Source of the DNA: an uncultured beta proteobacterium
GTDB lineage: Bacteria > Pseudomonadota > Gammaproteobacteria > Burkholderiales > SG8-41
Assembly: GCA_963828715.1 (NCBI GenBank)
Contig: CAWHFX010000017.1
Coordinates: 59,578 to 123,577 of the forward strand
Reading direction: 5' to 3'
DNA length: 64,000 nt
Every line of letters starts with the position of its first letter. Position 1 is the first letter of the stretch. A program made the position numbers and the translations under genes. Under the pieces are notes generated by a model that saw nothing but the letters and a program-made list of their open reading frames with translations, had not been told where the DNA came from and did not search any database. Positions 15,024 to 62,721 of this stretch are shown here, one piece after another.

Positions 15024-15156
15024 CTCTCCTGTCGATTCCACGAGTCCACTCCGCGTGGGTGGTGACTCGCCCTTGTTGCACGATCGGCGGACGGTAACAT
15101 ACGGTGAGAAACGATAAGGAGGTATGGAGGATGCGCATCGTCGCCCTCCGCGGGCT

Positions 15157-15219
15157 CCCGCGAACGTGACATTCACGCGCAGGTTAGAACTCACGTCCGA
15201 TCGTGCGAGGCTCACGGCG
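15157..15219 (+). repeat. 95-bp element, partial copy (3' two-thirds)
   Basis: CCGCGAACGTGACATTC...TTAGAACTCACGTCCGATCGTGCGAGGCTC matches the copies at 30.7, 41.3, 53.6 and 62.6 kb. Confidence 0.75.
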
Positions 15220-15247
15220 TCGGAAAACACGTCACCGCCATAGACGG

Positions 15248-23080: not shown

Positions 23081-24091
23081 CTACGAACCAGCCGGTGCGG
23101 AATTGACGGACCTTTCGTAAGCACGTCTCAGCTCGTTGTGCGCTTCGTCGAGCGTGATCGTGCGGAATCGCAGCGACTGCCCGGGTCGCGTCTGCGCGAT
23201 GCGGCCGATGTCGAACGAGCAGACCGTCGCGATCTTCGTGTAGCCGCCGGTGGATTGACGGTCGACCAGGAGCACGATCGGCTGGCCGTCGCCGGCGACC
23301 TGCACCGAGCCCAGCGCGATGCCGTCGGACACGATGTCGTGGCCCCGCACGTGCGCGATCGATGCACCGCGCAGACGCGCACCCATGCGGTCCGATTGCG
23401 GCAGCATCTCGTACGGACTTCCCAGAAATGCGGCGATGCCTCGTTCGGTAAAGCGATCGGCTTGCGGACCGAGGACGACGCGGATTTCGGCCTCACCCGG
23501 CTGAACATCAGCCGCGTGGTGCGCTGGCGCGGATGGCTTCCCCTCACCCCCACCCTCTCCCCGACTCGGGGCGAGGGCGTGTTCGACCGCCCGACACGTC
23601 TCGAGCGGGGCGTGTCCCGAGCCGAGGGCGGGCAGCAGCTTAAGCCGGTCCCCTTTGCGCAGCGCGCGCCCTTCGAGCCCGCCCAGTCCGCCGCGCAGAT
23701 ACGTCGAGCGAGAACCCATGACGAGCGGCACGTCGATCCCGCCGCGGAACGCGATATATCCACGCACACCCGTGCGCGCAGGGCCGATTCTGACGACATC
23801 GCCCGGCTGGAGCGCGAGCACCGTCCGGCGGGATGCCGGTTCTGCGTTCATCGTTACCGGCATCTCCGCACCGGTCACGGCGATCGCGCACTGCGCGTGG
23901 GCACGAAAACGCGGGCCGATCAAGGTGCATTCGAGTGCCGCCATCGAATGGCTGTTGCCGACGAGAAGGTTCGCGGCCACGAACGCATCGCGGTCCATCG
24001 GACCCGATGGCGGAATGCCGAAGCGCAGGAAGCCGAAGCGGCCGAGGTCCTGCACCGTCGTGAGCGGACCGGGATCGAGTATCTCGATCAT
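23081..24091 (-). CDS. pxpC: 5-oxoprolinase subunit C / allophanate hydrolase subunit 2 family
   Basis: PG.LTTVQDLGR.G, N.LVGN, GSRST, SDRMG.RL, G.VQV..DGQPI.L..DRQ.TGGY. Confidence 0.9.
   Translation of the reverse strand: MIEILDPGPLTTVQDLGRFGFLRFGIPPSGPMDRDAFVAANLLVGNSHSMAALECTLIGPRFRAHAQCAIAVTGAEMPVTMNAEPASRRTVLALQPGDVVRIGPARTGVRGYIAFRGGIDVPLVMGSRSTYLRGGLGGLEGRALRKGDRLKLLPALGSGHAPLETCRAVEHALAPSRGEGGGEGKPSAPAHHAADVQPGEAEIRVVLGPQADRFTERGIAAFLGSPYEMLPQSDRMGARLRGASIAHVRGHDIVSDGIALGSVQVAGDGQPIVLLVDRQSTGGYTKIATVCSFDIGRIAQTRPGQSLRFRTITLDEAHNELRRAYERSVNSAPAGS
23540..23577. repeat. CCCTCACCC-type REP-like palindrome inside pxpC
   Basis: CCCCTCACCCCCACCCTCTCCCCGACTCGGGGCGAGGG, near-identical to the intergenic copy at 36750. 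Confidence 0.8.
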
Positions 24092-29623: not shown

Positions 29624-30334
29624 TCAGCGCGCGTTCGGGAACAGACTGCGCGCCGCCTGCGGGTCAGCCGCGAGATCGACCACGTTCCCGTGCGCAAGAA
29701 TGAGCCAGCGCGGACGGTCCTTCTCGTATTCCTGTGTGAGCCACTGTCGGAGCGCGTGCTTGTCGCGCACCATGAACAGCGATCCGATGCGGTTGTAACG
29801 CAGACCGACGCCGTAGCTCAGTCTGAAAACCAGCTTCCATAGCGGACTGGGCGGCAGCTCGCTGATGTTGATTACGAGGTCCGTCAGATACCACGCGAGG
29901 CCCTGGGGCGTTCTGATACGGACGAGGGCCTCGCCGGTCCGGTAGTAGGGCATGTCCGTCAGTTCCACGGCCGCGCCGGTGAGCGCCTTCGCATCGGCGA
30001 GCGGCCGGACGTTCGCGATGCCGGTTTTGGCTTCGACGCGGGCGATCGACTGCGCCGGCGCGAATACGGCGGCAGCGGGAAATCGCTGTTTCCATTCCGG
30101 GATGCCCATGTTGTGAAACGCATTGGACGCAACCAGCGCGCGCACCGGGCCGTACGACGCGAGCTCGTCGAAAACCCGCTGTTGCACGCGATAGGGCGGG
30201 CTCAGCACGATGAGGCCCGATTGACCCCCGACCGCAAGCGCGTTGACGCGGGCCGGACCGAAACGGTATGCGGTCACCAGAACCGGTAAGTCGGCGTTGA
30301 ATACGCTCCACACCGAACGCGTCGCTCGCATCAT
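29624..30334 (-). CDS. Hypothetical protein, degenerate metallo-beta-lactamase fold (DUF4336-like)
   Basis: L.V.SP, GPV..LVA.N.FH..GI.EW...FP.A, TD, AHG. Confidence 0.6.
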   Translation of the reverse strand: MMRATRSVWSVFNADLPVLVTAYRFGPARVNALAVGGQSGLIVLSPPYRVQQRVFDELASYGPVRALVASNAFHNMGIPEWKQRFPAAAVFAPAQSIARVEAKTGIANVRPLADAKALTGAAVELTDMPYYRTGEALVRIRTPQGLAWYLTDLVINISELPPSPLWKLVFRLSYGVGLRYNRIGSLFMVRDKHALRQWLTQEYEKDRPRWLILAHGNVVDLAADPQAARSLFPNAR

Positions 30335-30465
30335 GGGAGATCTGCGTCGTGAACGCTGGTCGAGGGGTAAGCGCAGAGTCTAAGCGAGCATTGCCGTTGC
30401 TTTCATCTCGCGCGCGCCCCAATCGCGGCCAGATGCGCTATCTGCCTGCCCGACATGCCCGGCGG

Positions 30466-30480
30466 CGGCATGGGCCTTGC
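30466..30480 (+). promoter_or_regulatory. Possible sigma-54 promoter
   Basis: CGGCAT-GGGCC-TTGC with GG-N10-GC spacing, 35 bp before the ATG at 30516. Confidence 0.45.
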
Positions 30481-30515
30481 CTAGATAAAGACAGGTTCGA
30501 CCCAAGGAGACAGCG

Positions 30516-30713
30516 ATGAGCACGAAAGACAAAGAGCACGGCGAAGGCAATTACAAGGCGACGCAGGACTATAACGAGCGCACCAAGCAGTTCATCGATT
30601 CGGGCAAGGTCGACGAGGCCGCCCAGAAATCCAAGCCTACGAACCCGCAGGAAGCGCGCGAGATGAAAGAAGCTGAAGAGGCTGGCAAGTCGCATTCGAA
30701 GGGCGAACACTGA
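30516..30713 (+). CDS. Small hydrophilic hypothetical protein
   Basis: AAGGAG RBS; GEGNY.A...Y.......SG.V..AA....P...E....AE..GK pattern. Confidence 0.8.
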   Translation: MSTKDKEHGEGNYKATQDYNERTKQFIDSGKVDEAAQKSKPTNPQEAREMKEAEEAGKSHSKGEH

Positions 30714-30733
30714 GGTTAGAACGACCCCGTTCC

Positions 30734-31010
30734 GGTGAGCGGTGCGCCTCGGAGAGGCTGTCGCCGTGAACGTAACGTTCGAACGTCGGTTAGCACTCTC
30801 GTCCGAGCGTACCGAGGCTTGTGGAGATGGGTGAGCGGCGCGACTGGGACAGTCTGTCGCTGCGAACGAAACTTTCCGGCGCAAGTTAGAACTCTCGTCC
30901 GAGTGTACGAGGGTCAGGGCGATGGAAAGCGCCGGCCGCTGGGACAGCGTGTCCGCCCCGAGCGTAACGTTCGAAGGTCGCTCAGCACTCTCGTCCGAGC
31001 GTAGGAGGCA
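30734..31010 (+). repeat. 95-bp element, tandem array of 3 units (starts 30734, 30830, ~30924)
   Basis: Each unit has a GCG(G/C)-hairpin, GA(A/G)CG..AC.TTC and T(T/C)AG(A/C)ACTCTCGTCCGAG.GTA core. Confidence 0.9.
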
Positions 31011-31130
31011 CGCGTCGAGGGACGCCGGCCGTCGGAAGCCAAATCGATCGCCGGTGGGTGCCTGCCGCGGTGCGCGGCACGGAACGACCTCTGACTCGAT
31101 CCGCAGTTGTTCTGACATACTCGCCGTCGT

Positions 31131-32204
31131 ATGCGAACCGGTTTTGCGCATCTGCCGCTGCACGGCGGAAAGGCACCTGCCTATCTTTTCCAGCGCATGG
31201 TGCCGCTCGCCCGCGAGATTGCGATTTACATCGCGACTGAGTTCGGCCCACTGGAGGTGTTGCGCCGACTCTCGGATCCGTTCTGGTTTCAGGCTTTCGG
31301 CTGTGTGCTGGGCTTCGACTGGCACTCGAGCGGTCTCACGACGACGGTTTGCGGAGCGCTCAAGGAAGGCATGCGCGGCACGGAACGTGAATTCGGCATT
31401 CATGTCGCGGGCGGGAAGGGCGCCACATCCCGCAGGACACCCGCAGAAATCACAACGGCGTGCGAGCGAATCGGGCGCGATCCCGGCGGGCTGGTGCATG
31501 CGAGCCGCATCTCCGCCAAGGTCGACAACTCGGCCGTACAGGATGGGTATCAGCTCTATCACCATACGTTCGTGTTCACCGATGCGGGTGAGTGGTGCAT
31601 CGTGCAGCAGGGCATGAGCGACGAAACCGCCATGGCGCGCCGTTATCACTGGCTCTCCGAAAGTGTCGCAAGCTATGTGAGCGAGCCGCACGCCGCAGTC
31701 TGCTGCGAGCGAACTGCGCCCACGCTCAACCTGGTGGCTTCCGAAAGTGAGCGGGTGAGAGCGGCGAGTGCGAACCTCGCGTCCCAGAGGCCCGAAGTCA
31801 CGCTCGATGCGTTCATGCATCTGCCGCTGCTCGATATGCCGCGGCGCCATCAGGTCAGTGCCGACGATATCGATCCGAGATACCTCCGGAAAATCCTCCT
31901 TCGTACCTACGAACGTGCGCCCACTGATTTCGAGTCGCTTCTCTCGATCGAAGGTGTGGGTGCGAAGACGCTCCGGGCACTTGCGATCACGTCCGAGCTG
32001 ATCTATGGCACGCCCGCCAGCCGGCGCGACCCGGCCCGCTATTCGTTCGCTCATGGCGGAAAGGACGGCACACCCTATCCCGTCGATCGCGTTACGTACG
32101 ACAAGACCATCGAGGTCATGCGCGATGCGTTGAACAGGGCACAGGTGGGTCGCAGCGAAAAGGTACAGGCGTTTCGAAGGCTCGCGTCGTTCGCGAGCGG
32201 TTGA
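31131..32204 (+). CDS. DUF763 domain protein
   Basis: LPLH.G.AP, RLSDPFWFQ.FG.V.G.DWHSSG.TT, KVDN.A.QDGY.LY.H, SFAHGGKDG.P.PV. Confidence 0.92.
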   Translation: MRTGFAHLPLHGGKAPAYLFQRMVPLAREIAIYIATEFGPLEVLRRLSDPFWFQAFGCVLGFDWHSSGLTTTVCGALKEGMRGTEREFGIHVAGGKGATSRRTPAEITTACERIGRDPGGLVHASRISAKVDNSAVQDGYQLYHHTFVFTDAGEWCIVQQGMSDETAMARRYHWLSESVASYVSEPHAAVCCERTAPTLNLVASESERVRAASANLASQRPEVTLDAFMHLPLLDMPRRHQVSADDIDPRYLRKILLRTYERAPTDFESLLSIEGVGAKTLRALAITSELIYGTPASRRDPARYSFAHGGKDGTPYPVDRVTYDKTIEVMRDALNRAQVGRSEKVQAFRRLASFASG

Positions 32205-32219
32205 GGGTGAGCCCTTCAG

Positions 32220-33200
32220 CTACTCGGACAGCTTGATACCCGCTTCGGAGATGATCTTCGCGAACTTCGCCGACTCACCGCGTATGAAGGTGCGAAACTG
32301 TTCGGGTGTATTCGGCGCCGGGTCGAACCCGAGGCTCACGAGCTTGGACGCGATGTCCGGTGACTTCATCACCTGAACGGCCGCGCCATTGAGGCGGCGC
32401 AGTATCCCTTCAGGCAGCCCCGCGGGGCCCAGAAAACCGAAGAAGTTCACCAGCTCGAATCCCGCGAGCGGCGGGTACTCGCCGACGGCGGGTACATCGG
32501 GCAGCGCGGCGACACGTTGAGCAGACGTGACCGCGATCGGGTGGATCTTCCCGCTGTCGATGAACGGCTTGGCTGCCCCGATACTGACATAGGTCATCGT
32601 GACTTCCTTCCCCGCGACCGCGGCAAGCTGCGGGGCGGCGCCCTTGTATGGAACGTGCCGGATGTCCACGCCCGCCATCTTGTTGAACAGCTCTCCAGTC
32701 AACTGCTGTGGGTTGCCGACGCCGCTCGACGAGAACGTGAGCTTGCCGGGCGTCGCCTTCGCGTGCTTGATCAGCTCGGCCACCGTTTTCGCCGGCACGT
32801 CCGCATTCACCGCGAGGACGTTCGCAACTTTCACCAGAAGCGTGATCGGCTGCAGCTCGCGGTCCCAGTCGTACGCGATCTTCGGATAGAGATGCGGATT
32901 GAGTGCGATCTCGCCGGAGGCGACGAGCACCGTGTAGCCGTCGGGCTTCGCCTTCGCCACGAGCTCGGTCCCGATCATTCCGCTTGCACCGGTCCGATTG
33001 TCCACGACGACCGGCTGGCCGAGCATCTTCTGCAACTGTTCCCCGAGCACTCTCGCGGTGAGATCGGTGCCGCCGCCGGCAGGGAAAGGACAGACGATGC
33101 GGATCTGCTGCGTGGGATACTGTTGCTCGGCGGCGTTGGCGCCGAATGGGAACAGGCACCCCGCGGTGAGCAGGGCGAGTGCGGCAGTCGCTCGTTGCAT
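32220..33200 (-). CDS. Bug/TctC substrate-binding protein
   Basis: PFPAGGGTD, DNR.GA.G.IG, PDGYT, HVPYKG. Confidence 0.93.
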   Translation of the reverse strand: MQRATAALALLTAGCLFPFGANAAEQQYPTQQIRIVCPFPAGGGTDLTARVLGEQLQKMLGQPVVVDNRTGASGMIGTELVAKAKPDGYTVLVASGEIALNPHLYPKIAYDWDRELQPITLLVKVANVLAVNADVPAKTVAELIKHAKATPGKLTFSSSGVGNPQQLTGELFNKMAGVDIRHVPYKGAAPQLAAVAGKEVTMTYVSIGAAKPFIDSGKIHPIAVTSAQRVAALPDVPAVGEYPPLAGFELVNFFGFLGPAGLPEGILRRLNGAAVQVMKSPDIASKLVSLGFDPAPNTPEQFRTFIRGESAKFAKIISEAGIKLSE

Positions 33201-33252
33201 GCGTCTTCCTCCTGAAGCTACCCCTTACCCCACCGCTCTCCCCGATTCGGGT

Positions 33253-33315
33253 CTCGTCACTCCTCACTCGCCGCTCGTCACCGATCACGAGGCACGATCC
33301 ACGATCTACCAGCCA
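33253..33315. repeat. Degenerate heptamer tandem repeat (9 units)
   Basis: CTCGTCA CTCCTCA CTCGCCG CTCGTCA CCGATCA CGAGGCA CGATCCA CGATCTA CCAGCCA. Confidence 0.7.
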
Positions 33316-33324
33316 CTGTTCTCG

Positions 33325-34314
33325 TCAGTCGAGCTTGAGCCCGATCGCCTGCACGACTTTGGCGAAGCGTGCGACCTCGTTCTTGAAGAACGCACCGAGC
33401 GCTTCCGGCGTATCACCGGTCGGCACCGCGCCCGCTCCCAGCAGGCGCTGCTTCACGTCGGGCGCATCGAGCGCCTTCAGCGCTTCTGCATTCACCCGCG
33501 CGATCAGCTCCCGCGGCGTCCCGGCCGGCGCGAAGAGTGCGTTCCACAGCGACATCTCGTAACCCGGCAGCCCCGATTCCGCGATCGTCGGAATATCCGG
33601 CGCAACCGGCGAACGTTCTTTGGTCGCGACGGCGAGCGCTCTCACGCGGCCGTCCTTCGCGAGCGGCAGGCCGACGAGGATGCCGGAGAAGTACATGGAC
33701 ACCTGTCCGGTCACCGTGTCCTGGGCGGCCTGGGCGCCGCCTTTATAAGGCACATGCACGATGTCGATGCCTGCCGCGACCTTGAACAACTCGCCCGCCA
33801 GATGATCCGCGTTGCCGGGGCCCGCGGAAGAAAAGTTGAGCGCGCCCGGCTTCGCTTTCGCGAGTGCGATGAGGTCTTTCACGGACTTCACCGGCAGCGA
33901 CGGATGAACGATCAGGAGATGGGTGGAGTCGGCGAGGCGTGCGACGGGCGCAAGATCGCGCAATGCGTTATACGCGAGGCGGGTGTATGCGCTTGCGCTG
34001 ATCGCGAGTCCAGGATTGACGCACACGGTCGTATAGCCATCCGGCGGCGCCTTGGCTGCAAGCTCGGCCGCAATGTTCGCACCCGCGCCCGGGCGATTGT
34101 CGATGACCACGGGCCTGCCGAGGTTCTCCGACATTTTCTGCGCGACTATTCTCGCGATCACGTCGGTCGTTCCGCCGGGCGTGAAGCCGACCAGCAGGCG
34201 AATCGGCCGGCTGGGAAAAGCCTGAGCCGAAGCGGCCGGTGCACCTTGCGCGAGCGCTTCGCCGCATGCACAGACCATGAACATCGAGCACAGGAACCGT
34301 GCAGTCGCTTTCAT
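33325..34314 (-). CDS. Bug/TctC substrate-binding protein
   Basis: FPSRPIRLLVGF.PGG.TD, DNRPGAG, HVPYKGG. Confidence 0.93.
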   Translation of the reverse strand: MKATARFLCSMFMVCACGEALAQGAPAASAQAFPSRPIRLLVGFTPGGTTDVIARIVAQKMSENLGRPVVIDNRPGAGANIAAELAAKAPPDGYTTVCVNPGLAISASAYTRLAYNALRDLAPVARLADSTHLLIVHPSLPVKSVKDLIALAKAKPGALNFSSAGPGNADHLAGELFKVAAGIDIVHVPYKGGAQAAQDTVTGQVSMYFSGILVGLPLAKDGRVRALAVATKERSPVAPDIPTIAESGLPGYEMSLWNALFAPAGTPRELIARVNAEALKALDAPDVKQRLLGAGAVPTGDTPEALGAFFKNEVARFAKVVQAIGLKLD

Positions 34315-34429
34315 CCGTCCTCCCGGCCGTTCATCTGCCACCCTGGCAAGCGTGTGCCATCGCTCGTCCTCTCAGCGGGAATGGCCGTCCTTCCTATAAT
34401 AGGACATTCAACGCAGGAATTTCGTCCAC

Positions 34430-35449
34430 ATGATTCGTAGTTTCATAGAGCGCTCGCGCGGCGCGGCAGACCTTTCGTCTGCAAACCGTGCCGTCGTCGC
34501 CGGGATGCTCGCGGCTGCGGTCTTCTGTGCGAGAGACAGTGGCGCCCAGTCCTATCCGACGCGGCCCGTTCGCGTGATTCACGGCTATGCGGTCGGCTCC
34601 GCGATCGACGTCTACTCCCGGCCGCTCGCACAGAAGCTGTCCGAAGCGCTCGGGTATCAATTCGTCGTTGATGCGCGGCCGGGCGCGACGGGAACGATCG
34701 GCAGCGAGATCGTAGTGAAGTCGCCTCCGGACGGCTACACGCTGCTCGCCGCGCCGTCCTCCGCGCTCGGCAGCACGCCGCACATGCAGAAGCTCTCGTA
34801 CGACACGCTGAAAGATTTCGCACCGATCGCGCAGATCAACCAGTTCTACAGCGTGATCGTGGTGCATCCCGCAGTGCCGGCCAAGACCGCGGCCGACCTC
34901 ATCGCCCTTGCGAAGGCCCGTCCCGGCTTTCTGACGTACGCCTCGACCGGCGTCGGCAGCGGCTTCCATCTCAACATGGAGAGCTTCTGCCAGATGGCGG
35001 CCATCAAGATGCTGCACGTGCCCTACCGGGGCGGCGGCTCCACGGCGCTACCCGATCTGCTGGCCGGGCGTGTCGACGCCATGCTCGACAATATCGGCGT
35101 CGTGAAGCCGAACATCGATTCCGGCAAGCTGCGGCCGCTCGGCGTGACCGGATTGAAGCGGGTCGCCGCGCTGCCGAACGTGCCGACGATCTCGGAAAGC
35201 GGTTTACCCGGCTACGAATCCATGGGCTGGCATGGCTGGCTCGCGCCGGCCGCCACACCGAAACAGATCGTCGCACAACTGAACGCGGCCATTCGCAAGG
35301 CGCTCGCGCAGCCGGACATTCGGGCCATCTGGGAATCGAATGGCATTGAGGTGGTCGACACCACGCCCGAACAGTTCGCCGCGCGCATTCGCGAGGACTA
35401 CGAGCGTTACGGCAAGCTCGTGCGCAGCCTGGGTCTTGCCGTGAAGTAA
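34430..35449 (+). CDS. Bug/TctC substrate-binding protein
   Basis: YPTRPVRVI, RPGA.G.IG, PDGYTLL, HVPYRGGG; TATAAT at 34395-34400 upstream. Confidence 0.9.
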   Translation: MIRSFIERSRGAADLSSANRAVVAGMLAAAVFCARDSGAQSYPTRPVRVIHGYAVGSAIDVYSRPLAQKLSEALGYQFVVDARPGATGTIGSEIVVKSPPDGYTLLAAPSSALGSTPHMQKLSYDTLKDFAPIAQINQFYSVIVVHPAVPAKTAADLIALAKARPGFLTYASTGVGSGFHLNMESFCQMAAIKMLHVPYRGGGSTALPDLLAGRVDAMLDNIGVVKPNIDSGKLRPLGVTGLKRVAALPNVPTISESGLPGYESMGWHGWLAPAATPKQIVAQLNAAIRKALAQPDIRAIWESNGIEVVDTTPEQFAARIREDYERYGKLVRSLGLAVK

Positions 35450-35506
35450 ACGCAGTCGTTCTTTTCCCGGCGCCCGGAGCGCCGCGTTCAACACAGGAGA
35501 AGTCGG

Positions 35507-36733
35507 ATGATCCGCAACTTGCGCACGCAGCGCGACGACCAGCAATGGATGCTCGATCTCGCGCTCAACATGCGCGGACGAGTGCAGAACTTCGAAGGTG
35601 ACGCGACCGAGCTCCCGCCCGGCAAGCGCGCGCGCAACTATCGGATGATTCCCAAGGTCTGGCGCCAGGAGGCCGAGCGCCATGAAGCGCTCGCAAAGCG
35701 GGCGCACGCGCGTGGGGCACGCGCGACCGCGACTGCGCATTACGATCACGCGATCGAAGCCTATCGCATGGCGCAGCATCCGATCTTCTACGACGACCAC
35801 CCGGTGAAGCAGTATCTGTGCGGCAAGATGGCCGAGATGGTGGAGCGGCGCGCGGAAGTGGCTCCCTATCCGATCGAGCGCGTCGAGGTGCCGTTCGACG
35901 ATGGCAAGACGATCTCGTGTCTCTTTCATCTGCTGCCGGATCGGCGCACGGCGCCGGTCGTGATCTATGTTCCGGGGATGGATCAGACGAAGGAGGCGTT
36001 CCCGCTGGCTACTCACAATGTCGGTCTGGATCGCGGCTTCCACGTGCTAGCGATGGACGGGCCGGGACAGGGCAGTTCGAACCTGCAGAAGATTCGAGCG
36101 GTCAAGGACAACTACGAGCGGGCGGGCGCAGCCGTCGTGTCGTATCTCGAGAAGCGCCCGGAAGTGGACAAGACAAAGATTGCAGCCTACGGCAGCAGCA
36201 TGGGTAGCTACTGGTCGCTCCGGCTGGCGAGTTATGACCGCCGGATCGCTGCCGTCGCGAGCGCCGTAGCCTGTTTCAATCCGAACAACACGATCTTCAC
36301 GCAGTGCTCGCCGCGCTTCAAGCAGATGTTCATGTACATGGCAGGTTACGAGGACGAGGCACGCTTCGACGTGGAAGTCGCGCGCGACATGACCGTGCGT
36401 GGTCATCTATCGGGCATCAAATGCCCGACTCTGCTATCGACCGGGGAGTTCGATCCGCTGTGTCCGCTGGAAGACACCATCGAGGCGTATGAGGAATTGA
36501 CCGCGCCGAAGGAGCTGTGGGTTTTCGAGAACCAGTATCACCAGCAGCGCCGGTTGTCGAACCTCGGAGGCCTCGATAATTACGAATACATCTTCGACTG
36601 GCTGGGGCAGGTGTTCGAGCAGGGTTTGCCCGCGCAGCACCGGCGCATCGCCTACATACGGGAAAACGGCGACGGCCCGTGGGGTGAATGCGAATGGACG
36701 CCGACGGTGAGAGGCGGGGCCGCGTACTTCTGA
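35507..36733 (+). CDS. Alpha/beta hydrolase (FrsA / 2,6-dihydroxypseudooxynicotine hydrolase-like)
   Basis: IERVEVPF, PG.D..KE, DGPGQG, G.SMG nucleophile elbow, GE.D. Confidence 0.85.
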   Translation: MIRNLRTQRDDQQWMLDLALNMRGRVQNFEGDATELPPGKRARNYRMIPKVWRQEAERHEALAKRAHARGARATATAHYDHAIEAYRMAQHPIFYDDHPVKQYLCGKMAEMVERRAEVAPYPIERVEVPFDDGKTISCLFHLLPDRRTAPVVIYVPGMDQTKEAFPLATHNVGLDRGFHVLAMDGPGQGSSNLQKIRAVKDNYERAGAAVVSYLEKRPEVDKTKIAAYGSSMGSYWSLRLASYDRRIAAVASAVACFNPNNTIFTQCSPRFKQMFMYMAGYEDEARFDVEVARDMTVRGHLSGIKCPTLLSTGEFDPLCPLEDTIEAYEELTAPKELWVFENQYHQQRRLSNLGGLDNYEYIFDWLGQVFEQGLPAQHRRIAYIRENGDGPWGECEWTPTVRGGAAYF

Positions 36734-36749
36734 ACGTCAGTCCGCTGTT

Positions 36750-36870
36750 CCCCTCACCCCAACCCTCTCCCCAACTTGGGGCGAGGGCGGGTTTGAGCGC
36801 GGCGCGCGGCAGTAGAGCGCGTCTACGCAATTCCCTCTCCTCGAATCGGGATGAGGGCAGGGTGAGGGGG
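36750..36870. repeat. Inverted pair of CCCTCACCC-type palindromes (REPIN-like) between convergent genes
   Basis: 36750-36787 and an inverted copy at 36833-36870. Confidence 0.8.
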
Positions 36871-36871
36871 C

Positions 36872-37945
36872 TTACTTGGCCTTCGCCCGATTCTTCGCAA
36901 CCCACTCGTCGACCAGCGCGACCGTCTTGTCGACTTCCGCGTTCTGCATGCCTTTCGCTTTCGCGATGGTCTGCACGAGCCGATCGACACGCTCGATGTT
37001 GGGCGCACCGTTCGCGAGCGCGCGGGCGGCTGACGACGGGCTCTGCAGCGACAGTGCAGCCTGAGCGTACTTATCGAACGGCACCAGATCCTTCACGTCC
37101 GCGCCGAGCTTCCTGCACAGTTCGACCACCCAGTCGTAGACCGAACGCGACGTTTCCTTGTCCGTGTGCACCGCATCCTTGATCGTGCGCATGCCGTCCT
37201 TCTGTACGCAACGATAGTTGCCCGCGAGCAGCATGCTCCACTTCGCGAGCGGCACGAACACCGATTCGTGTACCTTGAGCTTTACCGGAAGCTCGATGCG
37301 AGTTCCGTCGCCGGCATCGAAACGCGCCGCTTCGATTCCGTCCTGAAGGTCGCGCAGAATGGCCGTGTGCGCGTCCGCATCGAAGCGCGCCGATTTGAAG
37401 TTCGTCGGCAGTCGTACCTGCAGAACGTTGACCTTGTCTTCGGGCGGTCGGAACGCCTGCGGGTCCGGACTGCACAGTGTCATATACTTCGGATCGAAGC
37501 TGTCCCAGACCGTGGGATCCGTGTAGGCGGGCCTGCACGCGTCGAGCGGAATGGCGGGGATGCGCGCGAGATACGGCAGCGGCGGCATGTTCATGATGGA
37601 CATGCACGGAACCCGTGCCTTCGCGACCGCGTCGAGCAACTCGCGCACGCCGGGCGAGCGATACTGCGGCTCCTGCATGGCGAGAACGACGAGATCGTAA
37701 TCCTTGGGATCGACCCCTTGCGTGCCGCCGGCGGAGAGCTTGCCCGGGAGCTTGCGCGTGTCGATTTCGACGAGACCTTCGCGACCTTTCACGGGCATCC
37801 GGATGCGTGCGCCTTCTTGGTTGATGAGGTCGGCTTCGGCAGGCAGGCAGATCAGCTTCACGGTGCTGCCCGCGGCGAGCAGTTTGGCGCCCAGCAGCGA
37901 GCCGTAGGACGCGCCCATGATCAGAATCTTGTAAGAGGCGGGCAT
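36872..37945 (-). CDS. Ketopantoate-reductase-like hypothetical protein
   Basis: Rossmann-like KILIMGASYGSLLG; DLVVLAMQEPQY; helical C-domain. Confidence 0.65.
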   Translation of the reverse strand: MPASYKILIMGASYGSLLGAKLLAAGSTVKLICLPAEADLINQEGARIRMPVKGREGLVEIDTRKLPGKLSAGGTQGVDPKDYDLVVLAMQEPQYRSPGVRELLDAVAKARVPCMSIMNMPPLPYLARIPAIPLDACRPAYTDPTVWDSFDPKYMTLCSPDPQAFRPPEDKVNVLQVRLPTNFKSARFDADAHTAILRDLQDGIEAARFDAGDGTRIELPVKLKVHESVFVPLAKWSMLLAGNYRCVQKDGMRTIKDAVHTDKETSRSVYDWVVELCRKLGADVKDLVPFDKYAQAALSLQSPSSAARALANGAPNIERVDRLVQTIAKAKGMQNAEVDKTVALVDEWVAKNRAKAK

Positions 37946-38054
37946 GTATATCTCCGGAATTGAAAGCGTATAGGCTGAATGGTACCGCACTTTGAGGCGC
38001 CGCTTGTGAATCGCGGCAGATCGTTTCGCATGGCGAAATGAGCGCAAGCCGCTG

Positions 38055-39296
38055 ATGCCGCGTCTCTCCGGTCAGCGGCTCGTTCTTGCCGTCTGCGGCG
38101 CGCAGGTGATGGTTCAGATCGGCGCGTTCTTCTGGCCTGCGCTGCTGCCGCGGCTCGCCCCGCTCTGGCAGCTTTCGAATGCCGAAGCCGGCTGGATCAC
38201 GGCCGCTTTCTATGGCGCGTACATGTTGTCCGTACCGGTGCTGGTTACGCTCACCGATCGCGTCGACGTGAAGCGCGTCTATCTGTTCGGCGTTGCCTGC
38301 ACGGTGGCAGGTCATCTCGTTTTCGCGCTCGCTGCACACGGCTTCTGGTCGGCGCTCCTCACGCGCGCACTGGCCGGGATAGGCTGGGCCGGAACCTACA
38401 TGACGGGCGTCAAGCTGCTCGCCGATCAGGTCGATGCGAAGCTCATGTCGCGTGCGGTCACGGGCCATGCTGCGAGCATCGGCATCTCCGGCGCGCTGTC
38501 GTTCGCATGCGCCGAGCTGCTGGCCGATCACTTCGGCTGGCCATCGGCGTTCATCGTGGCGTCGGCGAGTGCGCTGGTAGCCTGGCTCGTCGTCGCGCTG
38601 GGTGCGCCTCCACGCAAACCGGCGGCTGCGGCCTCGGACGGCGGCGGACTGTTCGATTTTCGCGTGGTGCTGCGCAACCGGTCGGCGATGGCCTACGCGC
38701 AGGCGTATTGCGTTCACACGCTCGAAATGAATGCGCTGCGCGGCTGGGGTGTTGCGTTCCTCGGCTACGTCGCTGCGAGCACGGGGGCAGCCGACGCGTT
38801 GCTCTCACCGAGTTTCGTGCTGACGGCACTCGGACTGGTCGGCACCGCTGCCAGCGTACTCGGGAACGAAGCCGCGATACGGCTCGGCCGCAAGCGGCTC
38901 GTGTCTGCCGCCCTCCTTGGATCCATCGTCGTGGCGGCGAGCATCGGCAGCGTGGGAACGATTTCATATTCGCTGGCCGTCGCACTGCTCATGGTCTACG
39001 GCTTCGTCGTATGGCTGGATTCCTCGTCGCTCACGGCCGGTGCGGCGGGCACTGCGGAACCGTCCCGGCGCGGCGCGACGCTCGCGGTGCACTCGACGCT
39101 TGGCTATGCGGGCGGTTTCATCGGTCCGCTCATGATCGGCTACACGCTCGATTTCGCCGGCGGCATGTCGCGCGCCGGCTGGAGCATGGCGTTCCTGCTC
39201 ATCGCGATTCTGAGCGTCCTTGCGCTTGCGGCGTTCTGGATCATGCGTCCACGGGAGCTGGCGGGCGACCGCGCGACGGAGTCGGCGCGGAACTGA
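38055..39296 (+). CDS. MFS transporter
   Basis: About 12 TM segments; LTDR.D.KR, RLGR.R. Confidence 0.88.
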   Translation: MPRLSGQRLVLAVCGAQVMVQIGAFFWPALLPRLAPLWQLSNAEAGWITAAFYGAYMLSVPVLVTLTDRVDVKRVYLFGVACTVAGHLVFALAAHGFWSALLTRALAGIGWAGTYMTGVKLLADQVDAKLMSRAVTGHAASIGISGALSFACAELLADHFGWPSAFIVASASALVAWLVVALGAPPRKPAAAASDGGGLFDFRVVLRNRSAMAYAQAYCVHTLEMNALRGWGVAFLGYVAASTGAADALLSPSFVLTALGLVGTAASVLGNEAAIRLGRKRLVSAALLGSIVVAASIGSVGTISYSLAVALLMVYGFVVWLDSSSLTAGAAGTAEPSRRGATLAVHSTLGYAGGFIGPLMIGYTLDFAGGMSRAGWSMAFLLIAILSVLALAAFWIMRPRELAGDRATESARN

Positions 39297-39494
39297 AGAC
39301 ACCTTACCTTTGTCGCGACGAGGTGCGTGCATCGACACGCGAGTGCTCAGCATGAAAGGTTCCTCCCTGCTCGGAACCGACCGCGGCGCGCCGGTTCCGC
39401 CCGGCGGTTCTATTGGGCCGCCGACTGTGCCAAGATTGCGCTCCTGCCGCTCCGCGTGTCTGTGGGAGCGCCATCAGAAACGGGAGAGGACCCA

Positions 39495-40217
39495 ATGACG
39501 ACCAAAGACATCCGCATCAAATCGAGCTCGGGTGGAGGAGAGTTCGACTGCTACATCGCCCTGCCCGACGGAAACGCGAAAGTGCCTGCGATCGTGCTGG
39601 CGTCGGCCGTGCACGGCGTCGACAAAGACATTCGCGACATCGCCGACGAATTCGCAGCGCAGGGCTATATCGCTGCGGCGCCGGATCTCTTCTGGCGCAC
39701 GGTGCCGGGCCCGCTCGGCCGCGACGACGAACGCACCCGGAGCCGTTCGCAGCCGCGGCTCCAGCGCATAAAGGAGGGTGAAACAGACTTGACCGATACG
39801 CTGGCCGAACTGCGCAAGGAACCGCGCTTCAACGGCCGTGCGGCGACGATGGGCTTCTGCTACGGTGGACCGTACGCGATCCTCGGCCCGAAGCGGCTCG
39901 GCTTCGAAGGCGGCGTCTCGTGCCACGGCACGCAGCTCATTGACTACATCAAGGACCTCGAGGGCGTGACGGCGCCCGTATGCATCATCTGGGGTGACCA
40001 GGACCATGCAGCGCCGCCGCCGGTGCAGGAGGCCTACCGCGAAGTGCCGAAGCGCATGAAGAACGTCGAGGTCGATATCTTCCCCGGCATTCAGCATGGC
40101 TACATGATGCCCGGCAGCGCGAAGGCATTCGACCGCAAGACCCGCGAGTTCTCGATGGGACGCGCGCTCGCGATACTCAACGGGTTGCGTGGGGAATCGT
40201 TGCGGAAGGCGTCCTGA
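39495..40217 (+). CDS. Dienelactone hydrolase family protein
   Basis: APDLFWR, GFCYGG, G..D, HGY. Confidence 0.92.
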   Translation: MTTKDIRIKSSSGGGEFDCYIALPDGNAKVPAIVLASAVHGVDKDIRDIADEFAAQGYIAAAPDLFWRTVPGPLGRDDERTRSRSQPRLQRIKEGETDLTDTLAELRKEPRFNGRAATMGFCYGGPYAILGPKRLGFEGGVSCHGTQLIDYIKDLEGVTAPVCIIWGDQDHAAPPPVQEAYREVPKRMKNVEVDIFPGIQHGYMMPGSAKAFDRKTREFSMGRALAILNGLRGESLRKAS

Positions 40218-40240
40218 CGCGGGCAGCGGGGCACGCAGCC

Positions 40241-41227: not shown

Positions 41228-41256
41228 TCACCGATATTTAGCACGACCTCCGATCT

Positions 41257-41348
41257 GGTGAGCGGCGCGCCTGGGACAGGCTGTCGCCGCGAACGTGACA
41301 TTCGAGCGCCAGTCAGAACTCTCGTCCGAACGTACGAGGGTCAGAGCG
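41257..41348 (+). repeat. 95-bp element, single full copy
   Basis: GGTGAGCGGCGCGCCTGGGACAGGCTGTCGCCGCGAACGTGACATTC...AGAACTCTCGTCCGAACGTACGAGGG. Confidence 0.9.
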
Positions 41349-41349
41349 G

Positions 41350-43761
41350 TTATGTCTCCGGTCCGCGTATGTCCGTGGTCCTCTGCCATTTCCAGTTGCT
41401 GATTTCCGGCATGTCTTCGCCGTATCGTTCGATGTGCATCTTGTGATCGAGCAGCCGGTCGCGCAGCCATTGCCTGGAGTGCGCCGCGCGCGAGCCCAGG
41501 CTCGGCACACGATCGATCACGTCTCCCACGAGATGAAAGCGGTCGAGGTCGTTCAGAACCACCATATCGAACGGCGTCGTCGTTGTGCCGTTTTCCTTGA
41601 AGCCGCGCACGTGGATCTGATCGTGATTGGTGCGGCGATACGTGAGGCGATGGATCAGCCACGGGTAACCGTGGAAAGCGAAGATGATCGGCTTGTCCTT
41701 CGTGAAGAGCGTGTCGAAGTCGCGATCGGCCAACCCGTGCGGATGCTCGCTTTCGGGCTGTAGCCGCATCAGGTCCACGACGTTGATCACGCGGATCCTG
41801 AGATGCGGAAAGTGCTCGTGCAGGATCTGCACGGCGGCGAGTGTCTCGAGTGTCGGTATGTCGCCGCAGCACGCCATCACGACATCGGGATCGCCGCCTT
41901 CGTCGTTGCTCGCCCACTCCCACATGCCGAGGCCGGCGGTGCAATGCTTGATCGCCGCATCCATATCCAGCCATTGCAGCGCCGGCTGTTTCCCGGCAAC
42001 GATGACGTTGACGTAGTTGCGGCTGCGCAGGCAGTGGTCGGTGACCGACAGCAGCGTGTTCGCGTCGGGCGGCAGGTAGACGCGGATGATCGCGGCTTTC
42101 TTGTTCGAGACGACGTCGAGGAAGCCGGGGTCCTGATGGCTGAAGCCGTTGTGGTCCTGCCGCCACACGTGCGAAGAAAGAAGGTAATTGAGCGAGGCCA
42201 CGGGACGGCGCCAGGGGATGTGTCTCGCTTCCTCCAGCCATTTCGCGTGCTGGTTGAACATCGAGTCGACGATGTGGATGAACGCTTCGTAGCACGAGAA
42301 GAATCCATGCCGGCCGGTCAGCAGATAGCCTTCGAGCCAGCCTTCGCACTGGTGCTCCGACAGCATTTCCATGACGCGGCCGTCCGGCGCGACGTGCTCG
42401 TCGCCGGGAACGATGTTCGCGACCGATGCCCTGTTCGTCACCTCGAACACCGCGTCCCAGCGATTCGATGACGTCTCATCCGGGCTGAACACGCGGAAGT
42501 TGCGCGCGCGCTCGTTCAGGCGCAGCACGTCGCGAATCATCGCGCCCTGTACGCGGGTTGCTTCCAGGGTAACTGTTCCAGGAGACGAAACCTCGACCGC
42601 GTAATCGCGAAAGTCGGGCAGGCGCAGATCGCGCAGCAGGAGGCCGCCGTTCGCATGCGGGTTAGCGCCCATGCGCCGGGCGCCTTGGGGCGCGAGCTCC
42701 GCCAGCGCGGGGCGCAGCGTTCCGTTTTCGTCGAAGAGCTCCTCCGGACGGTAGCTCCGCATCCACGCCTCGAGCATCTTCAGATGCTCCGGTTTCTCGG
42801 CGAGCCCGGCGAGCGGTACCTGATGCGCGCGAAACGTGCCTTCGACCGCCTTGCCGTCGACCGTTTTCGGCCCGGTCCAGCCTTTCGGAGTGACGAGGAT
42901 GATCATCGGCCACAGCGGACGTGCGCGGAATCCGTTCGTGCGCGCATCTTTCTGGATACGCTTCACCTCTCCGAGCACCTCGTCGAGCGTCGCAGCCATC
43001 GCCTGATGCATGGCCATCGGCTCGTCGCCCTCGACGAAATAGGGGCGATAACCGTAGCCTCGGAACAGCGCTTCGAGCTCTTCACGTGGAATGCGCGACA
43101 GCACGGTCGGCCCGGCGATCTTGTAACCGTTGAGGTGCAGTATGGGCAGTACCGCGCCGTCGGTCGCCGGGTTCAGAAATTTGTTCGAGTGCCAGCTCGT
43201 CGCGAGCGGACCTGTCTCGGCTTCGCCGTCGCCCACCACGCAGGCGACGATGAGATCCGGGTTGTCGAAGGCGGCACCGAAGGAATGCGAGAGCGAATAG
43301 CCGAGCTCACCGCCTTCATTGATGGAACCAGGAGTGGCCGCCGCCGCGTGGCTGGGAATGCCGCCCGGAAAGGAAAACTGCTTGAAAAGCTTCTTCATCC
43401 CCGGTTCGTCTTGCGAGATGTCGGGATAGAGCTCGCTATACGTGCCTTCCAGGTACGTGTTCGCCACCACCGCCGGTCCGCCGTGCCCGGGCCCCGTCAC
43501 GAAGATCATGTCGAGGTCGTCCCGTTTCACGATCCGATTGAGGTGCACGTAAACGAAATTGAGGCCGGGTGTCGTACCCCAGTGCCCCAGGAGCCGCGGT
43601 TTCGTGTCCGCGAGGGTGAGCGGCTTCCTGAGGAGAGGGTTGTCCAGCAGATAGATCTGTCCGACCGAGAGGTAGTTCGCGGCGCGCCAGTACGCGTCCA
43701 TGTTCCGCAGCAGATCGGCCGACAATGTCGGTTGCGCGACGTGCGCGCTGCTTGCTTTCAT
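41350..43761 (-). CDS. xfp: Phosphoketolase (XFP family)
   Basis: [60 protein letters not shown]. Confidence 0.97.
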
Positions 43762-43925: not shown

Positions 43926-43929
43926 GACG

Positions 43930-44703: not shown

Positions 44704-44835
44704 CGCTGGGGACCCCGCGGCTCTGCAGCCCCCGCCTACCACCGCCTCAGCCCTCGTACATTCGGACGAGAGTGCTAACCGGCGCCGGAAGGCTTCGCTC
44801 GCGGGGACCGCGCTGCTCCGCAGCCCCCGCTCACC
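44704..44835 (-). repeat. 95-bp element, one full unit (44835-44741) plus a partial second unit
   Basis: Reverse complement GGTGAGCGGGGGCTGCGGAGCAG...TCCCCGCGAGCG...TTAGCACTCTCGTCCGAATGTACGAGG; next unit starts 95 bp on. Confidence 0.88.
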
Positions 44836-44842
44836 GTGATGA

Positions 44843-45874
44843 CTATTGGCATCCTCCCACGCAGGCGCCCTTCCCATCGAACTCCATCGTGCGTCCGCTG
44901 ATCGAAAGGTAGGCCGGCCGCTTCACCAGCTTCATGAACGTCGCGGTCCGCGTGTTCGGCCGCAGCTTGCCGCCTTCCGTGACTGCCTCGTTCGCATGCG
45001 ATACCACCACCGACTGCGGACGAACCAGCTCGTTGATCGCATAGGCGGCGGCCTGCGGATCGATCGCATTCGGTCCGAGGTTGAAGATCGACATGTTCAC
45101 CTTGTGATAGTCCTGGACGATATTCTTCATTTCGGTGTGCAGGCCGGTATCGCCGCTCAGGTAAACGGTCAGGCCGTTCGTGAACTTCACGACGAAGCCG
45201 ATGGGCGGGCCGAGTGTGACCGCAACGCCTTCGCCTTCGGCCGTTTTCCGCAATTGCTCCGACAGCAGACTCGGCGCCACTGCGTTCGCATGCGATGCGT
45301 AGACGTTCGTGATCTCGACGGCCTCCTTGGCGTTCGCCGCACGCAGCTTGATCGTGCCTCCGAGATGCGAGTTGGAGCGACACGGCGCCGCAACCGGAAC
45401 GTTCACGGCGCCGCCTGATACCGGACACGGGCCGACGGGCTTGCCTCGAATCGCTTCGACTTTCTTGCCAAGGAAGACCGCGAGGTCGACGACCGCGACG
45501 ATGGCCGCGTTCTTCGCTGCCGCGACCTCGGCCGTCATTCCGTTCGCGCCGGCGGAAATCGTCTCGGGCTCGCCGCACGTGCCGGTGTCGAGTGCCTTCA
45601 GCTTGCGATCGCCGATGTGGTCGCCGTGCGCGTGGCTCAGGAGCACCGCATGCACGTCGCCGAGCCGGGGGTCGTCCGGACCGGTCAGCGTGTGGCCGGC
45701 GTCATACAGGATGCGCACGCCGCTCGGGTCTACGAAGAGCGTCGCACGATCGCGATCGCAGAGCTCGCCGTTGTGAGAACCGAGGAAAGTCATCTTTACG
45801 TTCTGGGCGGCTGCGGGAAGTGCCGTCAATCCCAGTCCCAACGTCGCAACCCCACACATGAATGCAACTCTCAT
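44843..45874 (-). CDS. Exported metallo-beta-lactamase-fold hydrolase
   Basis: Signal peptide; SHAHGDH, ASH.N, YLSGDTG, SH. Confidence 0.85.
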   Translation of the reverse strand: MRVAFMCGVATLGLGLTALPAAAQNVKMTFLGSHNGELCDRDRATLFVDPSGVRILYDAGHTLTGPDDPRLGDVHAVLLSHAHGDHIGDRKLKALDTGTCGEPETISAGANGMTAEVAAAKNAAIVAVVDLAVFLGKKVEAIRGKPVGPCPVSGGAVNVPVAAPCRSNSHLGGTIKLRAANAKEAVEITNVYASHANAVAPSLLSEQLRKTAEGEGVAVTLGPPIGFVVKFTNGLTVYLSGDTGLHTEMKNIVQDYHKVNMSIFNLGPNAIDPQAAAYAINELVRPQSVVVSHANEAVTEGGKLRPNTRTATFMKLVKRPAYLSISGRTMEFDGKGACVGGCQ

Positions 45875-45910
45875 TTGAGCTCCCTGTACATGTTGGTTAC
45901 TGCTTTGCTA

Positions 45911-52822: not shown

Positions 52823-53548
52823 ATGGACACGGGAATATGGGCCACCTGGTACAACCTCGCTGACGACACGCGCGACGCGTATCTCGAATGGGCCCACGGC
52901 ACGTACCTGCCATTTCTCAAACAGTTGCCCGGATATGCCTGGGTCGCGCACTATCGGCACGAAGGGGGCGGGCCGAAAATGAAGCGCGTCGAAGAGACGG
53001 TCGTCGGCCATACGGACGAAGACATCGGCGCCGGCTATCAGTATGTGATGCTCGTCGGCGCACCGTCGGCGCACACGTTCTTTCATCCCGCGTTGTCTGA
53101 AATCGAGCTCCCGGATTCGTTCAGGGAGAGGCTCGCCTTGCGGCAGGGGGTGCGCACTGCGATCTTCACCGAAGAGGCACGTGTAAGCGGTCCGGCGGCG
53201 GCGCAGGCGAGTCCCGGTTCGACACCCGGGCCCTATATCCAGATGGGAAGCTTCCGCATGCGCTCGCCGGAGTTGGAGTTCGACCTCGGCCGCTGGTATG
53301 CACAATTCCGGCTGCCGTACATGGCGCAGATGCCGGGTTGTCTGCGCACGCGCAAGCTGATCTGTGTCGCGGGGTGGGCGAAGCATGCGGTGCTCTACGA
53401 GTTCGAATCGGCCGAGATGCGGCTCAGGCACTTCGAAGAGCCGCACGAGTCGCTTTCACTCGACAAAACGCATTGGAGCTCTCAGATCACCGGGAACACC
53501 GTGCACACGCCGGGCTCGCCGACGATTGGGCCCAGGATATATCCTTAG
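52823..53548 (+). CDS. Conserved hypothetical protein with two EthD-like alpha/beta modules
   Basis: AGGAG RBS; repeated W.....LP...(Q)(L/M)PG pattern; LYEFES. Confidence 0.7.
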   Translation: MDTGIWATWYNLADDTRDAYLEWAHGTYLPFLKQLPGYAWVAHYRHEGGGPKMKRVEETVVGHTDEDIGAGYQYVMLVGAPSAHTFFHPALSEIELPDSFRERLALRQGVRTAIFTEEARVSGPAAAQASPGSTPGPYIQMGSFRMRSPELEFDLGRWYAQFRLPYMAQMPGCLRTRKLICVAGWAKHAVLYEFESAEMRLRHFEEPHESLSLDKTHWSSQITGNTVHTPGSPTIGPRIYP

Positions 53549-53565
53549 TAGGACCACCGCCATTC

Positions 53566-53822
53566 GGTGAGCGGGGACTGCGGAGCAGAGGGGTCCCCGC
53601 GAACGAAACATTCCAGCGTCGTTAACACTCCCGTCCGAGAGTACGAGGCTCAGGAAGGTGGGTGAGTGGGGGCCTCGAAGAGGCGGGGTCCCCGCGAACG
53701 AATCATTCCGGCGCCATTTAGCACTCTCGTCCGAGAGTACGAGGCTCAGGAAGATGGGTGAGTGGGGGCCTCGAAGAGGCGGGGTCCACGCGCGCGTGAT
53801 CGGCCAGCGCACTCTCGTCCAA
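53566..53822 (+). repeat. 95-bp element, tandem array (units start 53566, 53661, 53757; third internally deleted)
   Basis: Periods of 95 and 96; shared CGTCCGAGAGTACGAGGCTCAGGAAG.TGGGTGAG. Confidence 0.92.
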
Positions 53823-62573: not shown

Positions 62574-62599
62574 TGCTGCCCTTTATCCCGGCTTCCTCC

Positions 62600-62694
62600 G
62601 CCGCCCTAACCCTCGCACTCTCGGACGAGAGTTCTAAATTTCGCTTGAATGTCACTTCGCGGCGGACACGCTGTCCCAGCGGCCGCCGCTCACC
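62600..62694 (-). repeat. 95-bp element, single full copy
   Basis: Reverse complement GGTGAGCGGCGGCCGCTGGGACAGCGTGTCCGCCGCGAAGTGACATTC...TTAGAACTCTCGTCCGAGAGTGCGAGGG. Confidence 0.9.
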
Positions 62695-62721
62695 GGAACG
62701 CGGCAGTTCTGTCGACCGCGT

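Follow-up and report, generated by a model that had tools for sequence, protein, structure and literature searches.

The window, a 64,000-nt stretch of DNA from an uncultured beta proteobacterium, carries copies of an intergenic repeat. They probably belong to a modular, non-autonomous family of interspersed repeats that is specific to its lineage and of the same kind as REP, BIME, and BOX. Its copies are restricted to a single genus of uncultured Burkholderiales. The family is new, and no description of it was found in Rfam or in the literature searched. Selection for pairing in its first hairpin (H1) is supported, and its insertion sites differ between species.

The window lies in contig C17 of its own MAG (G000, the window genome), which is made up of 23 contigs and 6.96 Mb, with 63% G+C and a completeness of 85.5%. 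The genomes compared with it, including G010 (61% complete), are also MAGs. The repeat is present at six of six window loci, exactly where an earlier sequence-only reading had placed it (Table 1). A 22-nt degenerate word from the 3' core, allowed up to two mismatches, matches the window eight times and matches none of 100 dinucleotide-preserving shuffles. The HMM built from eight window units finds nine window units at E<1e-3, and these, with two partial H1 pieces seen by eye, account for the 11 units at six loci that had been counted. A repeat search of the window recovers the same loci as direct families D3, D6, D10, and D11 and as inverted pairs I2, I6, I9, and I14. The copy at 15157-15219 had been called partial and is indeed incomplete; it is a 5'-truncated copy that bears the junction of a longer form described below.

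Table 1. Repeat loci of the window and other features located in the window genome (G000) and in G010.
Feature	Location	Strand	Basis
5'-truncated copy: long-form 3' junction (..CCGCGGGCTCCCGCGAAC), spacer, TTAGAAC, H2, tail	window 15123..15229	+	nhmmer model positions 30-91; covariance-model match of 45.1 bits; aligns with long-form copies
Head-to-tail array of three units (30734, 30830, 30926; last truncated), leader TTAGAAC at 30716-30722	window 30716..31010	+	repeat families D3, D6; nhmmer; covariance model
Single full unit, leader TTAGCAC at 41238-41244	window 41238..41350	+	nhmmer; covariance model
Full unit (H1 start 44835) and partial second H1 (44704-44740)	window 44704..44858	-	nhmmer; covariance model
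Two full units (53566, 53661) and partial H1 (53757-53822)	window 53546..53822	+	nhmmer; covariance model
Single full unit, CAGAAC leader	window 62592..62716	-	nhmmer; covariance model
Long-form examples outside the window (among L161-L170)	G000 C20:148784-149024; C15:629398-629624; C21:190220-190574		long-form search
IS200-type copies	G000 C7:21707-22064, C17:243729-244019, C4:204613-204970; G010 C45, C41, C8		PF01797
Duplicated ATP-synthase block (L210, L211)	G000 C2:452762-458881 and C2:627668-632901		self-comparison of G000

Window copies lie close to gene ends. The array at 30716 begins 2 nt past the TGA (30711-30713) of a small upstream ORF. The leader of the 41238 unit is 10 nt past the TAA of a TctC-family gene, and the 3' end of this unit abuts the stop of a convergent phosphoketolase gene. 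The 44704 locus is located between co-directional genes, with the TAG stop of the upstream gene inside an atypical leader stretch that has no TTAGAAC word. At the 53546 locus, the upstream ORF terminates in a TAG (53546-53548), after which comes the leader TAGGACC. The 62592 unit is downstream of a TctC-family gene and upstream of a GNAT acetyltransferase gene, and three window loci in all follow TctC-family genes. Paralogues of the TctC/Bug-type solute receptors are numerous in the window (families D1, D4, D5, and D7-D9), and three of eight ORFs tested match PF03401.

Each unit is ~115 nt long and is composed of a leader, hairpin H1, a spacer, a second TTAGAAC or TTAGCAC word, hairpin H2, and a G-rich tail. 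It thus starts, with its leader, ~18 nt earlier than the ~95-bp unit first proposed. The leader is 18 nt long and has the consensus TTAGAAC-CACCCCGTTCC in flank alignments. A YAGMAV word is found 14-24 nt before H1 at 67 of the 121 loci with a 5'-complete first unit, and conservation fades further upstream. H1 has a conserved foot (GGTGA ... CGAAC) that contains a tandem G-A/G-A mismatch. Above the foot, 6-7 bp form the outer stem, TGT or GGGGT bulges out on the 3' side, and 5 bp of freely varying sequence make up the inner stem, which is capped by a triloop (GRA); among 123 fully paired cases the triloop is GGA in 84, GAA in 16, GTA in seven, and AGA in seven. H1 had been divided into two subfamilies. 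There are at least three in the window genome and more in its relatives.

The spacer after H1 reads GAACG..C.TTC and continues for ~8 variable nt. The second TTAGAAC/TTAGCAC word then directly abuts H2 (CTCTCGT/ACGAGGG), which has an 8-nt loop and a conserved T-G wobble. Despite a mean identity of 72.5% between copies, the blocks GGTGAGCGG, CGCGAAC, ACTC.CGTCCGA, and GT.CGAGG are strongly conserved. The TTAGAAC word occurs 163 times in G000, 84 of them inside recognised units, and the sister words TTAGAAG, TTAGAAA, and TTAGAAT occur 49-57 times. This excess indicates that the word belongs to the element and is not a pre-existing target.

A genome-wide nhmmer search with the HMM from the eight window units (E<1e-3) finds 187 units at 150 loci in G000. 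The density of about one locus per 10 kb noticed in the window holds there locally, but not for the genome, where 150 loci in 6.96 Mb amount to ~1 per 46 kb. Copies occur on 17 of the 23 contigs (none on C3, C6, C8, C11, C14, or C23), and their spacing along contigs is not regular. One unit is present at 123 loci, two at 19, three at seven, and five at one. All 27 multi-unit loci are head-to-tail arrays in a single orientation. The leader is found on the first unit of an array only, and the core is repeated one to five times. In G010, the tail ends in CAGAAC and the next unit starts at once with GAGCGG; the G000 junction is G(A/G)(T/C)GG followed by (A/G)NAGCGG.

The 3' end has no distinct end module. 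A trailing partial H1 with a GCGG-type start follows at only about 26-42 of 140 loci, and folding energy downstream does not differ from that upstream (p = 0.15), so a second H1 closing every element was rejected. A closing helix between leader and tail was also rejected. Pairing is -11.3 kcal/mol within a copy and -11.4 kcal/mol between copies (p = 0.41), and the complementarity is a property of the consensus only.

The compensatory base changes noted in H1 hold up. By direct stem parse, all 5 bp of the inner stem form in 123 of 150 units, 118 of them by Watson-Crick pairs only, with 14 different 5'-arm sequences. When 3' arms are shuffled among copies, 1000 trials give a mean of 25 and a maximum of 41 paired units, although the copies are kin and such shuffle tests overstate significance. 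A covariance model was built from 40 copies with a hand-set structure and was then used to align 66 copies, taken from the window and from loci of eight genomes. Pairing holds in 89.7% of the cells of this alignment, and both sides have changed in 11 of 19 pairs; the copies are kin and were fitted to the model, so independent events are far fewer than these cell counts. The covariation score is 0.199, compared with 0.100 +/- 0.005 after shuffling, and none of 500 shuffles is as high. Sliding the partners by 1-3 columns lowers it to 0.005-0.044. RNAalifold on MAFFT alignments was uninformative because the H1 subfamilies were aligned out of register, and it was replaced by the stem parse and the covariance-model alignment.

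Congeners keep the foot and the leader and have different stems, e.g., GCGGCAG/CTGCCGC, or GCGACGG/CCGTCGC with a 7-bp inner stem. Other stems on the same foot give independent support for H1 pairing. The selection on structure that had been proposed for the whole element therefore stands for H1. H2 is almost invariant, shows no covariation, and neither backs nor contradicts the fold. Its U-G pair, seen in 60 of 61 cells, ties the fold to one strand, the one drawn here. The two mutually exclusive 3' hairpins once suggested are not a feature of the family. The alternative, ACTCTCG/CGAGAGT, can form in only four of the 66 units with a canonical H2 (187 units in all), and three units capable of it happen to sit in the window.

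A long form of the element is found in the same genomes as the short form. At 24 loci, the element first seemed to be 5'-truncated, and 19 of these have a normal leader and H1 5' arm further upstream. Between the two H1 arms is a conserved insert of ~165 nt, or ~300 nt in five of the 19 copies. The insert sits in the H1 bulge, and the long form keeps both ends in common with the short form. A long-form HMM gives 34 matches in G000, 21 of them above 120 bits (about 21 strong loci). The insert itself is matched 26 times in G000, 17 times in G004, and seven times in G010, with fragments in G012, G006, and G007. Within the insert is GGTTCTAAC, the inverse of the leader word, and the element as a whole holds TTAGAAC three times in direct orientation and, in the long form, once inverted.

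One long-form copy folds at -137.6 kcal/mol, compared with -118.2 +/- 5.5 kcal/mol for shuffled sequences (z = -3.55). An alignment of 12 long-form sequences and a stray 10-nt row has 43 consensus pairs, of which eight have changes in both partners; the domain is still closed by the outer stem of H1. Eight long-form loci have no match in Rfam at E<=1.

Genes in G000 were called with a crude GC3-based caller, which gives 4933 genes and 70.6% coding sequence and therefore under-calls. Against these calls, 146 of the 150 loci are outside genes. Convergent genes flank 61 loci, co-directional genes 78, and divergent genes seven; four loci are intragenic. The upstream same-strand gene ends within 30 nt of H1 in 68 of 74 loci. 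In 27 of the 74 it ends 13-16 nt before H1, at the position of the TAG in the leader, and in seven it ends at the TGA inside GGTGAGC. The leader is thus often on a stop codon or in its place. Two paralogous ATP-synthase operons (Table 1) show such a left junction, since their similarity stops inside the atpA stop: one continues as TATTA+A... and the other as TATTA+GAAC and the element. In one of the ATP-synthase blocks, ~1 kb between atpA and atpD (apparently atpG) is replaced by a 137-nt spacer with a partial element. In the other block, the atpG reading frame looked interrupted on reading.

A position at gene 3' ends, often a few nucleotides from the stop, is what would be expected of a cis-acting structured RNA in 3' UTRs, i.e., an mRNA stabiliser, processing site, or termination signal read from the drawn strand and maintained by selection locus by locus. 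The covariation of H1 and the strand-specific fold, with its G-A tandem mismatch at the foot and its U-G wobble in H2, fit such an RNA, as do the folding energy of the long form and its eight of 43 predicted pairs with changes on both sides. This reading is nevertheless unlikely. At co-directional sites, the element has the orientation of the genes at only 46 of 78 loci and the opposite one at 32. No U-tract follows either hairpin in the window copies that were read, and no Rfam family matches. The genes concerned do not need the element, as it is absent or single-copy in most congeners and is missing from the orthologous sites described next.

The distribution of the family is narrow and patchy. 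A search with a strict word in one genome per GTDB species, a set from which the window genome may have been left out, finds two MAGs only, labelled uncultured beta proteobacterium and Burkholderiales bacterium. Among 41 relatives, the strict word with up to one mismatch occurs 100 times in G000, 73 times in G010, and 13 times in G004. These are three of the 13 genomes of the genus, and the 28 genomes of other genera have none. The covariance model finds single copies in G003, G012, G001, G009, and G011, 24 weak matches in G006, and none in G007. Diverged or single copies are thus counted in six of the seven congeners sampled with this model, and one copy or none in five. The model has no match in 53 genomes from 12 other genera of the host family. 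A plasmid collection has no match by blastn, and viral contigs have none to the exact pattern.

A 17-kb block of the window is syntenic with contig C41 of G010 at 77-83% identity. The genes before the 41257, 53566, and 62600 copies have orthologues in G010, and the element is present at none of these three gene ends. At the 62600 site, the two spacers share only the first bases past the stop, and the G010 spacer is otherwise unrelated. At the 53566 site, the G000 gene is one codon shorter than its G010 orthologue and ends in the TAG directly before the leader. G010 has one copy in the syntenic block, inside a 3.7-kb segment that is absent from G000. The sequence-only reading had left a mobile element and a structured RNA side by side. 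The genus-restricted, patchy family, the empty orthologous sites, and the occurrence in both orientations to flanking genes favour the mobile element, and this reading is well supported by the distribution.

Copies are old and mixed. Mean identity is 72.5% within G000, 77.7% within G010, and 74.4% between the two. The nearest neighbour of a G000 copy within its genome has a median identity of 87% and a maximum of 94%, and there is no sign of current activity. For 31 of 104 G000 copies, the nearest neighbour is in G010, and the subfamilies are common to the species and not clustered by genome.

No exact pair of filled and empty alleles was seen in the comparisons made, i.e., congeners, public runs, and a metagenome scan. 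In four public runs (two DNA, two RNA) compared with window positions 30001-50000, contigs are short and none joins exactly across the element. One contig from an RNA library touches 44729-44802 with three indels and may derive from another copy. These contigs support neither expression nor excision. The metagenome scan, made with the phosphoketolase beside the 41257 locus, gives distant relatives only (best 81% identity), in which no empty site is readable.

Shared subfamilies could also mean that the copies serve the host as DNA sites for a nucleoid protein, gyrase, or recombinase and were spread and kept by their benefit to the chromosome. The highly conserved blocks amid 72.5% mean identity and the recurrence of the TTAGAAC word, including its inverted occurrence in the long form, would suit a binding site. 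Against it, five of the seven congeners sampled with the covariance model have one copy or none, and the copies share no orthologous sites, have no regular spacing, and have no known binding protein. This explanation is very improbable.

The mobile-element reading is best examined against the defining features of known classes. MITEs depend on a DDE transposase and are marked by inverted ends and target duplication, and the family has neither. There are no terminal inverted repeats, and the 5' end (TTAGAACCACCCC...) is unlike the reverse complement of the 3' end. Own and permuted flanks of 106 loci match equally well, with 58 matches and 55.1 expected at k=5, 19 and 17.9 at k=6, 5 and 4.4 at k=7, and 0 and 1.1 at k=8. 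H1, at 150 loci, has the character of a REP, being a GC-rich, imperfect, extragenic palindrome in many copies. The units are never inverted or alternating as in REPINs and BIMEs (27 of 27 arrays), and H2 is not an inverted copy of H1. Among the genomes examined, there is no cognate RAYT gene flanked by the repeat, as a REP-RAYT system would have. Integron attC sites have an inverse core and a core site at their two ends that pair with one another, and gene cassettes beside an integrase separate them. The repeats differ from these, as the TTAGAAC words are direct and not inverted, the copies are dispersed, and the arrays are contiguous.

Comparison with databases gives no better assignment. The window has no Rfam match at the gathering score. 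The only match in the array region is to mir-555, at 22.6 bits against a gathering score of 92. Full-text searches for sequence words return only unrelated primers among the matches listed, none with the 12-mer. The novelty proposed from the sequence alone is upheld, with no match to Rfam or to a described REP/BIME family.

No mobilising gene was found adjoining any copy in searches for RAYT, IS200, TnpB, IS91, and IS110 genes, and this counts against the mobile reading. A RAYT-like gene of 250 aa is present in seven congeners, including G010, with no H1-like motif in its flanks. None is detectable in G000 (85.5% complete) by tblastn with both G010 proteins. The Y2/IS91 transposase (PF04986) has no match in G000, G010, or G004 and is matched only in G011, G006, G001, and G012. 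G000 has no TnpB domain, and its four IS110 genes are not near copies. An autonomous parent was sought by self-megablast, and the element is absent from all 61 repeated G000 segments of at least 400 bp.

Among 13 genomes of the genus, strong matches to PF01797 occur only in G000 and G010, with three copies in each. Those of G010 are intact; those of G000 are all frameshifted or stop-bearing and far from any element. The repeat might accordingly be a miniature (PATE-like) derivative of this resident IS200/IS605-type IS, with the Y1 transposase TnpA of that IS as its mobiliser. The IS copies have YTAGC on their left flank, which resembles the leader word, and the repeat lacks both inverted ends and target duplication. 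In IS608, a conserved word is located ~19 nt before the foot of the first hairpin and ~12 nt after the last, and the layout of the unit recalls it.

When five IS copies of G000 and G010 are aligned, their hairpins (CCCCGGC...GCCGGGG) and ends prove to be different, without similarity to H1 or H2. One TnpA normally binds similar hairpins at both ends, whereas H1 differs from H2. A strong Y1 match is lacking in G004 and G006, which have the family or a diverged form of it. IS200/IS605 elements are also usually biased in orientation with replication. The repeat shows no such bias against local GC skew, with counts of 33, 35, 40, and 42 (odds ratio 0.99), although only ~55% of genes follow the skew and the direction of replication is poorly known. 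Derivation from this IS is quite improbable.

The preferred reading remains a family of non-autonomous mobile repeats. The lack of inverted ends and duplication, the strand-specific fold, the hairpins by both ends, the repeated word, and the direct arrays together read as the signature of a single-strand, HUH-like mechanism. Such a mechanism has been proposed for REP/RAYT and is known for IS200/IS605. A trans-acting enzyme would recognise the folded hairpin ends on one DNA strand and cut at (Y)AGAAC words, and the element would move by single-strand cut-and-paste or copying. Arrays may grow through unequal recombination or slippage. Inserted copies are probably tolerated because of their position behind genes.

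A bolder form of this proposal takes the repeat as the non-autonomous part of a new hairpin-guided element that lacks inverted repeats and target duplications, with (Y)AGAAC at both ends and inside and with insertion at or into stop codons. The multi-helix domain of the long form, 165-300 nt within H1, would then be a nucleic-acid cofactor, guide-like or ribozyme-like, for an enzyme not yet recognised. This form is a long shot.

Several known systems resemble the family in part. IS200/IS605 elements and their miniatures, IS91/ISCR elements, and Helitron-type elements have no inverted ends or target duplication, and they possess subterminal hairpins, a short word at or near both ends, and tandem insertions in the same orientation. 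The repeat shares all of these features. It differs in that its ends are unlike those of the resident IS200, no Y2 gene is present in the three element-rich genomes, TnpB is missing from G000, and there is no strand bias as far as the weak skew can tell. RIME and ERIC, of rhizobia and enterobacteria, are intergenic, lineage-restricted repeats of 100-130 nt with more than one palindrome and moderate copy number. They are similar in size, palindromes, location, and restriction to a lineage, as compared by description only, whereas the family has a higher copy number and direct arrays are common in it.

REP, BIME, and REPIN elements are mobilised by RAYT in Enterobacteria and Pseudomonas (PMC3116915, PMC3337134, PMC5581495). 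REP sequences, as described in PMC3116915, are GC-rich imperfect palindromes with a conserved foot, are extragenic and located behind genes, and reach hundreds of copies, all as seen here. Further likenesses to REP sequences are clustering, predicted folding of ssDNA or mRNA, a division into several sequence groups in which pairing is maintained, and the lack of target duplications and inverted terminal repeats (PMC3116915). By that account, 93% of REP doublets are inverted (PMC3116915), whereas all 27 clusters of this family are head-to-tail. The family also differs in its ~115-nt unit with two unlike hairpins and fixed spacers, in its long form with a 165-300-nt insert, and in having no RAYT flanked by the repeat and none detectable in the richest genome (G000).

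The BOX repeats of streptococci are modular and intergenic, with predicted stem-loops, a variable number of modules, and different module sets in related species, as described in PMC3049150, and in these respects they are similar. They are made up of an end module, a middle module that can be repeated in tandem, and another end module, and their ends are reported to be inverted repeats that resemble an IS (PMC3049150). The present family is from a different phylum, has no sequence likeness to BOX, and has no inverted-repeat ends. Its repeated module is the whole H1-spacer-H2 core.

Overall, the behaviour of the family is most likely that of other selfish intergenic repeats. Interspersed repeats of small size are frequent, and to our knowledge few families have a known mobiliser. 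This one fails the defining tests of the MITE and REP-RAYT classes, yet one of its hairpins is clearly selected, and it has short and long forms with the same ends. It therefore offers a clean opportunity to track down a missing enzyme and its substrate in a soil lineage that is uncultured, and its long form and stop-codon junction deserve the closest attention. The repeats also affect annotation, as 27 of 74 upstream genes have their stop codon supplied or displaced by a repeat, and they break short-read assemblies, as seen from contig-end matches in G004. A model of the family would help the annotation and binning of these genomes.

The 24 matches in G006 (e.g., L205 and L207) and L203 of G011 form a diverged sister family. 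Its members share the leader and the foot of H1, but their inner stem is 7 bp long, their loop is a tetraloop, and their 3' half differs and has no H2.

Other repeats are also present in the window. Repeat family D2 is made up of WD40 repeats, which occupy most of a 1051-aa protein encoded at 57640-60795 (+), a size unusual for a bacterium. A second short repeat family, D12, is located at 23538-23590, 33219-33271, and 36748-36800; it is C-rich and has a small GC hairpin at its end. In G010, the spacer orthologous to the 62600 locus is occupied by a D12-like sequence.
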